From the IMG/VR virus record IMGVR_UViG_3300045988_013110, positions 1 through 23,439 of that record: a stretch of 23,439 bases of DNA; one strand, 5' to 3'. A program made the translations under genes and the position numbers. Numbering within the stretch: the stretch's first letter is position 1; every line of letters starts with the position of its first letter. The notes under the pieces were generated by a model that was given only the letters and a program-made list of their open reading frames with translations, had not been told where the DNA came from and ran no database searches. Source of the DNA: a virus. Taxonomy: Duplodnaviria > Heunggongvirae > Uroviricota > Caudoviricetes. Positions 5,337 to 13,979 of this stretch are shown here, one piece after another.

Positions 5337-5921
5337 TTATTGTTTGCTTTTTTCGTTCTGGTTGATGACAAATTCAATGTAACTTTCGATCTTTGCTTTC
5401 TCGGTTTCGGGTAACAATGCGTAGCGCGAGCGATCATAGTTGATGGTCGCAGGGTCGTGCGGGTGAATCAGTAATTCATAGCCGTGACGCCCGAATGCGG
5501 ATGCAACATTCTCCAGGGTGGAAATGGAAACGCTGACCTCATTGTTTAACAGGCGACTGATTGTCACCTGGGCGACGCCGGATGCGCGGTGAAGTTTTCC
5601 CTGCGTTGAAAGGTCGCGGCTTTCGCTCATCCAGCGTTCCAGGTTGTGAGCCGCCAGCTGACCAATGTCGCTTGGGCCGACAGGCTGAAAACCTTCCTGA
5701 GAAAGCGAGCGATCGATATCAAGCCAGTTACGGGGTTTATTGGCGGCAGCTTCAATTTTTCGCGCAACCTGGTCGCCGATAACCTTCTTGCCAAGAGCCC
5801 AGCGGTTTACCAGATTTGCCTGAGTTCCAAGTTTTTCTGCCATCCGCGTCTGAACACCATTGAATTCACGGTCGATCAAGTCGTTGAGATTTTGCCTGCG
5901 GACGTCCTGGATACTTTTCAT
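5337..5921 (-). CDS. prophage repressor (CI-like) with two HTH regions and no obvious S24 peptidase domain
   Basis: Two XRE-type HTH stretches (MAEKLGTQANLVNRWALGKK and ASGVAQVTISRLLNNEVSVSISTLENVA). No GDSM-type Ser/Lys autocleavage motif seen. Divergent from a Cro-like gene with operators in between. Confidence 0.7.
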   Translation of the reverse strand: MKSIQDVRRQNLNDLIDREFNGVQTRMAEKLGTQANLVNRWALGKKVIGDQVARKIEAAANKPRNWLDIDRSLSQEGFQPVGPSDIGQLAAHNLERWMSESRDLSTQGKLHRASGVAQVTISRLLNNEVSVSISTLENVASAFGRHGYELLIHPHDPATINYDRSRYALLPETEKAKIESYIEFVINQNEKSKQ

Positions 5922-5976
5922 TTTCTGGAAAATCGCCTCATATATGAATCAGTAGATGATTCAATTTAAAGCAATA

Positions 5977-6039
5977 TTACCCAACAGGTAAATGCACCCC
6001 ATAGGTAACTATCCTTGATTTTTGTTACCTTATGGGTGA
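5977..6039. promoter_or_regulatory. OR-like tripartite operator region between the repressor and Cro-like gene
   Basis: TTACC-CAACA-GGTAA (5977-5991), GCACC-CCATA-GGTAA (5994-6008) and TTACC-TTATG-GGTGA (6025-6039) lie in the 154-bp divergent intergenic region. Confidence 0.6.
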
Positions 6040-6075
6040 ATATTTATTATCTGAAATAAATATCAGGCAATAGCT

Positions 6076-6306
6076 ATGAGCGATAACGGACATTTCGATT
6101 TCAAAAAGCACTGGCTTGCACTTACTCCGGATGAGCGTGAAGCCTTCGCACAGGAAGCCGGAACGACGAGTCACTATATCCAGACTCACTTAACAGGTAA
6201 GCGCAAAATGCCAGGTAAGGTATTGATGAATGGGCTTTTTAAAGCCTGTAAAACAAGACAATGGCTGCGCTCAAAAGCAGAACTGGCATACTTCTTCTAC
6301 TCATGA
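6076..6306 (+). CDS. Cro-like HTH protein
   Basis: 76-aa ORF divergent from the repressor; HTH-like stretch TSHYIQTHLTGKRKMPGK; followed by a terminator. Confidence 0.55.
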   Translation: MSDNGHFDFKKHWLALTPDEREAFAQEAGTTSHYIQTHLTGKRKMPGKVLMNGLFKACKTRQWLRSKAELAYFFYS

Positions 6307-6327: not shown

Positions 6328-6351
6328 AGACCGCCATCCGGCGGTCTTTTC
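6328..6351 (+). terminator. rho-independent terminator after the Cro-like gene
   Basis: Stem AGACCGCC / GGCGGTCT with loop ATCC, followed by a short T-run (TTTTC). Confidence 0.5.
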
Positions 6352-6377: not shown

Positions 6378-6457
6378 AAAAAACCAAATCTGGTTGATCT
6401 TTTTTTTTGTGTCAGCACAAAATGACCGTAATCCCAATACTAATAACAGGGCTTACC

Positions 6458-6658
6458 ATGGAAATCATTACACGTATTGATGCCGCAAAGCGCGGACTTA
6501 AACGCTACTACACCGGAAAACCATGTAAGCATGGACATGACAGTGAACGCTGGGTTTACAACGGACACTGTGTTGAGTGCACCATGGAATCAAACCGTCG
6601 CATCAGGGCAGAGATTAAGCAGATCATGATTAATTCCTCCCCACAACACTCAAGCTGA
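6458..6658 (+). CDS. hypothetical Cys/His-containing small protein
   Basis: Start taken at MEIITRID (the upstream ATG at 6407 has no Shine-Dalgarno). Contains CKHGHD...CVEC, a possible zinc-binding motif. Confidence 0.4.
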   Translation: MEIITRIDAAKRGLKRYYTGKPCKHGHDSERWVYNGHCVECTMESNRRIRAEIKQIMINSSPQHSS

Positions 6659-6673
6659 TAGCGGAGATTAATC

Positions 6674-7507
6674 ATGAGCAGACATGCAACAGATTGGGCC
6701 TGGGAGACAGATCCAGGTAGCTCATCATTAAAGCTCATACTGCTCTCGATGGCTGACAGAGCCGATGAATATAACCTCTGCTACCCCAGCATAGAACGCC
6801 TCGTTAAAGACACTTGCCTGAATAAAAAAACCGTGCAGGCCGGGCTTATATCGCTCATGAAAATGGGGCTTATTTCAGATACCGGAGAGAGAAAGGGAGC
6901 GACAAAAAGAGTGCGGGTTTTCTCTCTTAATATAACCAAAAACGGGAACATTAAAGGCAACCTAGAAGGGTGTAATGAACCCGAAAACGGTAATGTTCCC
7001 GAAAACGGGAATATACCCAAAAACGGGATGTTGAATGATCCCAAAAACGGGATGTTGAATGATCCCAAAAACGGGATCCAGAACCAGTCATATAACCAGT
7101 CATTTAACCAAGAGAGGGAGAGCAGGACAAAAACCGGGGATTCTGTGCCTCATGACCCCGGCGCAAACAACGCCGTGATGAATAACTTTGTTCCTCCTGG
7201 TGGGCCAGGGCAATTAGGCAAATTTGTCATGCATGAACAATGGCAGCCATCAGATGACTTTCTTCGGAAAAGCTCATTGCAGGGAATCTACCTGGACAGT
7301 CTGCCAACGGCACAGGAACTTGCAGAGTTCAGAATTTACTGGATGGCTGAGGGTAAGGCATACCATCAGGCACAGTGGGAGCAGAAGCTGGCAAGGCGCA
7401 TCCAGTTCTGTAGACAGAAATCAGGTGAAGTCAGAAAGAGCCTTGACTGGCATAACACTGACTGGATAGATGAGGTGTGGGATGAAATCAACTCCAGAAC
7501 TTCTTAA
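6674..7507 (+). CDS. replication initiation protein (HTH N-terminus, DnaT-like C-terminus) with embedded iterons
   Basis: N-terminus (WAWETDPGSSSLKLILLSMADRADEYNLCYPSIERLVKDTC) resembles HTH domains of phage replication initiators; the C-terminal region looks DnaT-like. An iteron array lies inside the gene, as ori does in lambda O. Confidence 0.7.
   Translation: MSRHATDWAWETDPGSSSLKLILLSMADRADEYNLCYPSIERLVKDTCLNKKTVQAGLISLMKMGLISDTGERKGATKRVRVFSLNITKNGNIKGNLEGCNEPENGNVPENGNIPKNGMLNDPKNGMLNDPKNGIQNQSYNQSFNQERESRTKTGDSVPHDPGANNAVMNNFVPPGGPGQLGKFVMHEQWQPSDDFLRKSSLQGIYLDSLPTAQELAEFRIYWMAEGKAYHQAQWEQKLARRIQFCRQKSGEVRKSLDWHNTDWIDEVWDEINSRTS
6935..7104. repeat. iteron array, candidate origin of replication
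   Basis: Six copies of core CC(C/A)(G/A)AAAACGG(G/T) starting near 6936, 6980, 6998, 7016, 7040 and 7064 (spacing 18, 18, 24, 24 bp), then AACCAGTCAT twice (7082-7103). Confidence 0.6.
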
Positions 7508-8264
7508 TGAGTACGATCGCTTTCGTGGTGGGCATGACCACTCGACGGCGGTTGCTTCTGCTGACGATGAAAGGGCAAAGAAGGAGCAGGTTGCAAGAAT
7601 TTTCAACGAAATGTTTGTCCAGTTACAGGCTGCATTTCCAGGCAGCATCGCTGCTATCAGCGAGCAAGGAAAGCTAAACGAATTTCGAAAACAATGGATG
7701 CTTGCGTTTCTGGAGAATGGGATCACAACAATGGAACAGGTTAACGCTGGTATGCGCCACGCCCGCGCCAGTGAATCTCCGTTCTGGCCGTCGCCAGGGC
7801 AATTTATCAAGTGGTGCAAAGACAGCAAGATGGTTCTTGGCGTCACCATTGACGATGTGATGGCGGAGTTTCACCGGTACAGCAAGGAAAAAAGTTTATA
7901 TCCTGGTGGTCCCGAAAGATTCCCGTGGCGACATCCGGTTATGTACTGGGTCGTATGTGATACCCGCCGTGCAATGTATCAGCGCCAGCTTAGCGAGATT
8001 GAGGTTGAGAAACACGCGCGCAGGCTGCTCGATGATTGGGCGAAAAAGGTAGCTTCCGGACAGCAGATACCCGATCCGGTGATCAGCATACAGGCAAAGC
8101 GAGAGCCCATGAGTACACCTCCGGACACAGGGAGAGACGTTTACCATCCACCAGGGCGAAGTTTCGGGTGCATGCCTAACGCCGCCACCCTTGGGGGAAT
8201 AACACCGGCGCAGTGGCTGATGGAGGAATACAGGCGGGGAAAGGCGGCAGGATTTATCAAGTAA
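7482..8264 (+). CDS. replication protein P-like helicase loader
   Basis: KQWMLAFLENGITTMEQVNAGMRHARASESPFWPSPGQFIKWC matches, by recollection, the conserved core of lambda P. GAGG Shine-Dalgarno before ATG 7482; overlaps the initiator gene 3-prime end. Confidence 0.8.
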   Translation: MKSTPELLNEYDRFRGGHDHSTAVASADDERAKKEQVARIFNEMFVQLQAAFPGSIAAISEQGKLNEFRKQWMLAFLENGITTMEQVNAGMRHARASESPFWPSPGQFIKWCKDSKMVLGVTIDDVMAEFHRYSKEKSLYPGGPERFPWRHPVMYWVVCDTRRAMYQRQLSEIEVEKHARRLLDDWAKKVASGQQIPDPVISIQAKREPMSTPPDTGRDVYHPPGRSFGCMPNAATLGGITPAQWLMEEYRRGKAAGFIK

Positions 8265-8301
8265 TACCAGCGCGATAGCGCATTTTTTTACGTCTTGATA
8301 A

Positions 8302-8378
8302 TTACCTGTTGGGTAATAAAATATTCTAAAATCTATTGATTTCGTGTCTTATGTGGTTTTTAATTACCTCAGAGGTAA
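8302..8378. promoter_or_regulatory. operator pair upstream of the middle-gene operon
   Basis: Perfect TTACC-N5-GGTAA at 8302-8316 and 8364-8378, centres 62 bp apart. The proximal site overlaps the Shine-Dalgarno (AGAGG) of the gene starting at 8382. Confidence 0.5.
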
Positions 8379-13902: not shown

Positions 13903-13979
13903 TGGCGTGGCATGCAGGATTCGAACCTGCGACCAACCGCTTAGAAGGCGGTTGCTCTGTCCAACTGAGCTAATGCCAC
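13903..13979 (-). tRNA. tRNA-Arg (anticodon UCU)
   Basis: Hand-folded 77-nt cloverleaf with CCA: acceptor GTGGCAT/ATGCCAC, D-arm GCTC-AGTTGGACA-GAGC, anticodon stem ACCGC/GCGGT with loop CTTCTAA (anticodon TCT), T-arm GCAGG-TTCGAAT-CCTGC, discriminator G. Confidence 0.85.

Follow-up and report, generated by a model that had tools for sequence, protein, structure and literature searches.

The 23,439-nucleotide stretch of viral DNA analysed here (the window; IMG/VR record IMGVR_UViG_3300045988_013110, Caudoviricetes) very probably holds, as judged from its sequence, a vegetative replication origin at 6935–7135, inside the coding sequence of a replication initiator. The origin would serve a phiV10-like temperate phage or prophage and follow the plan of phage lambda. 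The best reading is of an origin that is lambda-style in design, with an initiator that lies outside the lambda O family; it is a new example of a known design and challenges no existing concept. The traits on which this reading is built are (i) six direct repeats (iterons) inside the initiator open reading frame (ORF), with internal dyad symmetry in the form of CCC/GGG arms, (ii) tandem 12-mers to their right, (iii) a purine/A-rich tract beyond these, and (iv) the recurrence of dyads and 12-mers behind related DNA-binding domains. The gene and the elements that it contains are the following.

6674–7507, plus strand: replication initiator gene, 277 amino acids, containing the array (ORF list, Pfam, PHROG 1032)
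6674–6934, plus strand: region coding for the winged-helix N-domain, residues 1–87, the presumed iteron reader (AlphaFold2 model)
6935–6946, plus strand: iteron 1, ACCAAAAACGGG, with a degenerate left arm, 45 bp before site 2
6980–6991, plus strand: iteron 2, CCCGAAAACGGT
6998–7009, plus strand: iteron 3, CCCGAAAACGGG
7016–7027, plus strand: iteron 4, CCCAAAAACGGG
7037–7078, no strand: three GATC (Dam) sites within and flanking iterons 5 and 6, beside the 12-mers
7040–7051, plus strand: iteron 5, (GAT)CCCAAAAACGGG(AT), with extended arms ATCCC/GGGAT
7064–7075, plus strand: iteron 6, (GAT)CCCAAAAACGGG(ATC), with 6-bp arms GATCCC/GGGATC, starting 17 bp ahead of the first 12-mer
7081–7116, plus strand: three tandem 12-mers, GAACCAGTCATA (7081–7092), TAACCAGTCATT (7093–7104) and the degenerate TAACCAAGAGAG (7105–7116), a candidate unwinding or helicase-entry element (Tandem Repeats Finder, TRF)
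7108–7134, plus strand: purine/A-rich tract CCAAGAGAGGGAGAGCAGGACAAAAAC, right of the 12-mers and in the same position as the A-rich tract of other lineages and of lambda
7223–7423, plus strand: region coding for the DnaT-like C-domain, residues 184–250 (PF17948, E=1e-14)

Across the whole window, CCCRAAAACGG with at most one mismatch is matched six times, at 6935, 6980, 6998, 7016, 7040, and 7064, all on the plus strand. Dinucleotide-preserving shuffles of the window contain 0.81 such matches on average and 3 at most, and none of 100 reaches six. The original prediction, made from the letters alone, had described six copies of a 12-bp core with 18- and 24-bp periodicity inside the initiator coding sequence. 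The counts bear this out, as do the start-to-start distances of 45, 18, 18, 24, and 24 bp and the two arrays reported by TRF, one of 18 bp (6972–7026) and a perfect one of 24 bp (7016–7077; 2.6 copies, 100% matches); the initiator itself matches PHROG 1032, “replication initiation protein,” over its 277-residue product with E=3e-102. The interval of 6935–7104 that had been assigned to the array begins with the first core and closes exactly with the second 12-mer, and the tandem repeat said to follow the cores corresponds to the 12-mers at 7081–7104 and to a 12-bp TRF repeat, AACCAGTCATAT, at 7082–7110 (2.4 copies, 94% matches). The repetitive NG/KNG peptide is likewise present, with all six cores read in frame 0 as TKNGN, PENGN, PENGN, PKNGM, PKNGM, and PKNGI.

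The six copies, which span 6935–7075, share the core consensus [A/C]CC[A/G]AAAACGG[G/T] and, with their flanks, take the form RAATRWW-CCCRAAAACGGG-AW. Iterons 5 and 6 have the sequence GATCCC-AAAAAC-GGGAT(C/G), in which inverted arms of 5–6 bp bracket an A-tract. Single-strand folding of the region gives z=-3.1 for the plus and -2.65 for the minus strand because each dyad can form its own small hairpin; no larger single-strand structure beyond one such hairpin per dyad is found on either strand, and Rfam has no match in the array region, its sole match in the window being a tRNA at 13906–13979. Nowhere else in the window do three GATC sites fall within 60 bp as they do at 7037–7078; the window has 90 GATC in total against 91 expected, and it is possible that Dam methylation or SeqA controls initiator binding at this cluster. 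A terminator scan also flags two minus-strand sites with a hairpin and a T-run inside the array (7024–7067), in which the hairpin joins the right arm of an iteron to the left arm of the iteron that follows and the core supplies TTTTT. These flags are probably a by-product of the tandem dyads, and the hairpins could terminate antisense transcription.

At the level of sequence, the AACCAGTCAT repeat is a second conserved element beside the dyads. A local minimum of duplex stability at 7080–7120 coincides with the 12-mers (30-mers there have -37 kcal; the mean is -42.6 and the standard deviation 3.2), and a second local minimum lies at 6926 (z=2.4).

The initiator is a composite protein in which the array occupies the linker between two domains. 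Pfam identifies HTH_36 at residues 18–67 and the DnaT DNA-binding domain at residues 184–250. An AlphaFold2 model of the N-terminal 95 residues (mean predicted local distance difference test score, pLDDT, 86) is a winged helix with helices at 40–47 and 51–63 and a β-hairpin wing at 67–85; the family-invariant DTGERKG sits at the wing tip. The first iteron begins at codon 88, right after the last wing strand, which ends at residue 85. Foldseek comparison of the N-domain model with the PDB returns generic winged-helix regulators (TM score 0.5–0.6, E≥2.7e-3) and no Rep- or O-type relative. The C-domain (residues 180–255) matches the PDB chains of DnaT 6AEP, 4OU6, and 9ZBT with E of about 1e-19 and aligns to DnaT residues ~85–160.

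Membership in two known families was considered and rejected. The initiator has no match to PF04492 (Phage_rep_O) at E values up to 0.01, and hhalign gives the N-domain alignment a 2.7% probability of homology to lambda O residues 1–171. Some PHROGs labelled “O-like” match residues 1–150, and lambda O itself has no detectable homology. DnaT or primosomal protein I is rejected as a description of the whole protein, of which residues 180–255 alone match, the N-terminus being HTH_36. The database names “primosomal protein I” and “DnaT” are therefore misleading, because only the C-domain is DnaT-like. Of 5,426 complete E. coli genomes, 424 carry the gene, nearly always on the chromosome and under the label “DnaT-like ssDNA-binding domain-containing protein,” and the phiV10 reference record calls it “replication initiation protein (DnaT family).” Many database ORFs of the initiator are truncated to 97–158 residues and end at or just past the array (protein clusters P0001, with 62 member sequences, and P0002, with 48), and in phage YDC107_2 (2117–2166) the gene is split at CCCAAAAAACGGG, which has an extra A. 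The A-runs of the iterons probably break gene calls through frameshifts or sequencing errors.

The evidence that the repeats are constrained as DNA comes from relatives. A profile search with a four-sequence alignment yielded 65 species-dereplicated genomic loci whose N-domains are 36–87% identical, from Vibrio, Proteus, Providencia, Pseudoalteromonas, Marinomonas, Acinetobacter, Desulfovibrionaceae, Sphingomonadales, and others; a search of viral contigs gave near-identical loci only, which inform on copy number and not on diversity. In the 300 bp past the domain, CCC-W6-GGG dyads occur at 13.5 per kb as against 0.81 per kb elsewhere in these loci, a 17-fold enrichment, and 44 of the 65 have at least three copies. 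Named examples with the same array just past the N-domain include Edwardsiella phage GF-2, Vibrio phage Her, Acinetobacter phage SPB, Burkholderia phage Bcep176, and the PPompW prophages of E. coli, whose N-domains are 43–56% identical to that of the window in a MAFFT alignment.

The dyads occupy all three reading frames across the set. An array spaced 17, 17, 24, and 24 bp, for example, passes through frames 2, 1, 0, 0, and 0, and the spacings in Bcep176 (17 and 22 bp) are not multiples of 3. The encoded peptides differ accordingly: TQKRE or TQKRD in frame 1, DPKTE in frame 2, and PKNG, PKIG, PIYG, or PKFG in frame 0. A dyad core that is kept across frames with different peptides rules out a purely peptide-level repeat. 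Spacing is also quantised, with 57 pairs at 24 bp, 18 at 17 bp, and 11 at 18 bp, and the pair closest to the 12-mers is 24–25 bp apart in 31 of 43 loci.

The 12-mers recur with the dyads. The motif [AGT]AAYCNNYCA is found at 5.1 per kb in the post-domain zone and at 0.28 per kb elsewhere (18-fold), with at least two copies in 52 of the 65 loci; most lineages have two or three tandem copies after the last dyad. Enterics and Vibrio, for example, have GAACCAGTCAT, and Acinetobacter and Desulfovibrionaceae have GAATCTCCCAA or GAATCTACCAA. Copies are spaced 12 bp apart in 34 cases and 13 bp in 12, the latter spacing shifting the frame of neighbouring copies, and in loci L128, L120, and L113 the element is read in another frame. 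From the start of the last dyad to the start of the first 12-mer the distance is exactly 17 bp in 37 of 43 loci. Behind the 12-mers there is often an A-rich tract (AAAAATAAAAAAA), as seen in Acinetobacter and Vibrio loci.

What lies beyond this module is exchangeable. The N-domain, dyads, and 12-mers are joined to at least 13 C-terminal types that BLASTP does not relate to one another; the DnaT-like type is the only one with a Pfam match, ten others having none. In GF-2, the phiV10-type N-domain and iterons are joined to a C-terminus clearly homologous to that of lambda O (...NTDWIYGVQL), followed by a P gene, and in an Acinetobacter phage a DnaB-like helicase gene adjoins the initiator. In lambda O, the N-terminus confers origin specificity and the C-terminus partner specificity, and exchangeable C-termini on a constant module of N-domain and array match this two-domain logic. 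Taken together, the post-domain enrichment of the dyads, their presence in all frames, the fixed 17-bp offset, and the exchange of C-termini argue for a constraint on the DNA that is tied to the N-domain.

The 86 loci of the phiV10-type population have arrays of 4 to 9 copies that always differ by whole 18- or 24-bp units; the arrangement of the window is the commonest, and the 12-mers number 1–3. A more distant relative is found on NZ_CP148379.1, a circular E. coli record of 8,461 bp that carries a helix-turn-helix (HTH) repressor, a Cro-like gene, YdaT, an initiator with a 49% identical N-domain and CCCAAAAACGGG-type repeats, P, rem, hokD, and a few others, and no replication gene besides the initiator and P. 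It resembles lambda-dv and, by that analogy, is possibly a natural sign of autonomy. A similar record from Klebsiella (8.6 kb) was given no weight as evidence of autonomy, being a linear contig.

The closest comparison in design is lambda ori, with four annotated iterons in the middle of gene O (ATCCCTC-AAAAC-GAGGGAT, spaced 20, 24, and 23 bp). In both, dyad-symmetric direct repeats lie in the initiator linker, between a DNA-binding N-domain and a recruitment C-domain, so the parallel drawn in the original prediction stands as one of design, not of family membership. Also shared are an ATCCC arm, an A-tract and a GGGAT arm, an excess of A on the top strand (42% A and 17% T at 6925–7135; 44% and 16% in lambda ori), a P-family loader gene directly downstream that overlaps the initiator, and the placement of the module downstream of a cro-like gene and a terminator. 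In contrast to lambda, the window has six sites rather than four, spaced 18 or 24 bp and 16–18 bp long instead of 19 bp; its N-domain is HTH_36 and not Phage_rep_O; its C-domain is DnaT-like and not that of lambda O; and conserved tandem 12-mers with a weaker A/purine-rich tract replace the strongly AT-rich 40 bp. The earlier statement that the iteron sequence differs from lambda ori holds for the centre, which is 3 bp shorter in sites 5 and 6, but not for the outer arms and the A-tract, which these sites share with lambda.

Other systems share parts of the arrangement. The Stx phages 933W and P27 have six in-gene iterons, with a copy number that varies among related phages (PMC7466680); unlike the family of the window, their O proteins and iterons are close relatives of those of lambda. 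Gene 18 of P22 and gene 18 of phage L encode initiators distant from lambda O, with their own short mid-gene repeats that are read as the origin (PMC8022706). The phage L repeat, TGTCCAACGGA, differs from that of the window, and P22 and L pair the initiator with a DnaB-type helicase (gp12), whereas the window pairs it with a P-type loader. For lambda, P22, and L, it is accepted to infer an origin from repeats of this kind within the gene (PMC8022706; PMC7466680). Iteron plasmids (RK2 TrfA, F RepE, pPS10 RepA) likewise combine a winged-helix initiator with direct repeats beside short tandem repeats in the DNA unwinding element (DUE). Their iterons, however, usually lie outside the rep gene, lack dyad symmetry, and are accompanied by DnaA boxes, of which 6500–7600 has none. 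According to PMC4081077, the Rep proteins of RK2 and F bind the 13-mer repeats of the DUE as single strands, and this is a possible analogy for the 12-mers of the window. The likeness to E. coli DnaT is confined to the single-stranded DNA-binding domain; the rest of the initiator and its origin-specific role are not DnaT-like. The oriJ of the Rac prophage was considered as an experimental anchor and set aside, ydaU being a DUF1376 protein of a different family.

Several results weigh against an origin at this site. The six cores of the window share one frame and have 18- and 24-bp periods, and the window alone cannot separate coding from DNA constraint because all its repeat units are multiples of 3. 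N-domain distance and iteron profile do not covary significantly among relatives (Mantel r=0.035, reached by 608 of 2000 permutations), and co-evolution is therefore not claimed; within Acinetobacter, covariation is marginal (r=0.20, 103 of 2000 permutations). Polymorphism among 62 near-identical loci does not set cores apart from spacers (7/72 versus 11/69, p=0.32). The low-stability, AT-rich segment is modest, with z of about 1.7–2.4 as compared to 3.6 for the AT-rich region of lambda. Assembly or excision could have produced the 8.46-kb circle, which would then not be a maintained replicon. Finally, the phiV10 reference record has no annotated origin feature, and no experimental work on the phiV10-type initiator family was found in the literature. 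The literature likewise yielded nothing relevant on the motifs or on phiV10 iterons, with a prior mention in Weigel & Seitz 2006 being possible.

Three other explanations have been weighed. The one that survives best, improbable as it is, holds that the repeats bind the initiator mainly for control, by autoregulation, titration or handcuffing, exclusion of related phages, or incompatibility, and that opening takes place elsewhere, for instance in the AT-rich intergenic DNA at ~5940–6050 or 8300–8340. The least stable 30-mers of the window (13246, 8313, 6036, 8737, and others) all lie outside the initiator gene and not beside the array, a range of 4–9 copies would be tolerable for a titration element, and plasmid iterons serve both control and initiation roles. 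A pure binding array does not, on the other hand, account for 12/13-mers at a fixed 17-bp offset that are often accompanied by an A-rich tract, which is the anatomy of an initiation site; the same arrangement in lambda is an origin, and the dyad is rare elsewhere in the 65 loci, in which arrays were counted in the post-domain zone only.

It is very unlikely that the array is a coding repeat, generated by slippage to supply a flexible P-K/E-N-G interdomain linker, with no function as DNA. In its favour, in-frame units of the window that are multiples of 3 encode a low-complexity peptide, copy number shifts by whole 18- or 24-bp units, and within-population polymorphism indicates no extra constraint on the cores. 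Relatives, however, carry the same DNA core in three frames with unrelated peptides and at spacings of 17, 22, 23, and 25 bp. CCC-W6-GGG stays when the central residue changes (N, I, Y, F), the 12-mers are read in at least two frames, and neither dyad symmetry nor a fixed 17-bp offset is needed by a linker peptide.

That the sites are read by another protein, either a host factor (DnaA, IHF) or the small Zn-ribbon-like product of 6407–6658, is highly improbable. In its favour, the CCC...GGG arms are kept across very different hosts with no measurable covariation with the N-domain, and the small ORF upstream belongs to a PHROG of unknown function; against it, 6500–7600 contains neither a DnaA box (TTWTNCACA, at most one mismatch) nor an IHF consensus, and array and N-domain occur together in Gamma-, Alpha-, and Deltaproteobacteria despite differing neighbour genes.

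If 6935–7135 is the origin, initiation would begin with the N-terminal winged-helix domain binding the six CCC-W6-GGG dyads, probably as dimers, to form an O-some-like complex. This complex would stress or open the adjacent 12-mer and A/purine-rich segment at 7081–7135. The DnaT-like C-domain might bind the exposed single strand, recruit the P-type loader and host DnaB, or do both, and transcription that starts at a pR-like promoter and reads past the terminator may help, as it does in lambda.

A wider reading is offered tentatively and is rather doubtful at present. The dyad array with its fixed-offset 12/13-mers may define a widespread origin class in phages and prophages of Gamma-, Alpha-, and Deltaproteobacteria, with the 12-mers as a sequence-specific element for unwinding or single-strand recognition that might be compared to the 13-mers of oriC and RK2 or to DnaA-trios. 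Read by the winged-helix domain, this would amount to a portable “origin plus reader” cassette carried on at least 13 recruitment domains. The family-wide 12-mer element at its fixed offset is the most interesting by-product of the analysis, and the conserved 12-mers offer a concrete way into the question of how DNA is opened by lambda-like initiators and passed to different helicase-loading partners. More immediately, the analysis assigns a probable origin to the phiV10-type phages, which serve as reporter phages for E. coli O157:H7, and addresses an initiator that is labelled only “DnaT-like” or “primosomal protein I” in E. coli genomes. It also provides a simple, portable rule by which origins could be annotated across a large family of initiators: an HTH_36 winged helix, followed by CCC-W6-GGG dyads at 17/18 or 24 bp, followed by 12-mers 17 bp past the last dyad.

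The window as a whole resembles Escherichia phage phiV10 (Uetakevirus, epsilon15-like), with which it is collinear at 94–98.6% identity (97–98% near the replication genes) with few mosaic gaps; it corresponds to phiV10 from 26,726 to the end of the genome and on to 12,589. The features that surround the initiator gene are listed below.

5337–5921, minus strand: repressor gene with two HTH motifs, upstream and divergent
6022–6050, plus strand: pR-like promoter candidate that would transcribe through the origin (consensus scan, 9/12; such sites are no commoner than by chance)
6076–6306, plus strand: cro-like gene, downstream of the pR-like candidate
6328–6347, plus strand: tR1-like intrinsic terminator between the cro-like and replication genes (terminator scan; the equivalent phiV10 site is annotated as a terminator)
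6407–6658, plus strand: small ORF directly upstream of the initiator (PHROG 1081, unknown function, E=1.6e-42), with the motif CKHGHDSERWVYNGHCVEC
7470–8264, plus strand: lambda-P-type helicase loader gene overlapping the initiator 3′ end (PF06992, E=4e-53; PHROG 109, “P-like helicase loader”)

The small ORF is conserved in phiV10 (p42) and epsilon15 (p40), and its motif is possibly a Zn ribbon. The loader gene has an alternative ATG at 7482, and its product is 41% identical to lambda P, as compared to 31% for the P protein of phiV10. The block at 7399–7733, which covers the last ~35 initiator codons and the first ~85 P codons, diverges from phiV10 between flanks that are 96–98% identical. The initiator tail of the window, ...SLDWHNTDWIDEVWDEINSRTS, is found in 12 of 86 related loci and is like the lambda O tail, ...LDLTNTDWIYGVDL. 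The block looks like a co-swapped cassette for the interface between initiator and loader.

Close relatives of the replication region are also found in unexpected records. Phage BP9, a 138-kb Vequintavirus record, and PH444 (115 kb, UNVERIFIED) both include a phiV10-like segment for immunity and replication that is ~97% identical to the window. This segment is located at the end of the record in BP9. That a temperate podovirus module turns up in a Vequintavirus genome points to a chimeric assembly. Two E. coli “plasmids” of 41,027 bp, NZ_CP079771.1 and NZ_CP079768.1, encode an N-domain 100% identical to that of the window and match a complete phiV10-like genome in size; each is probably an extrachromosomal circle of the phage and not a true plasmid.

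Outside the replication region, a tRNA-Arg gene (anticodon TCT) (ARAGORN; Rfam, 73 bits) is located at 13903–13979 on the minus strand, between the genes for terminase and portal. No tRNA is annotated at the collinear place in phiV10, whose record has the hypothetical protein p04 there, on the opposite strand.

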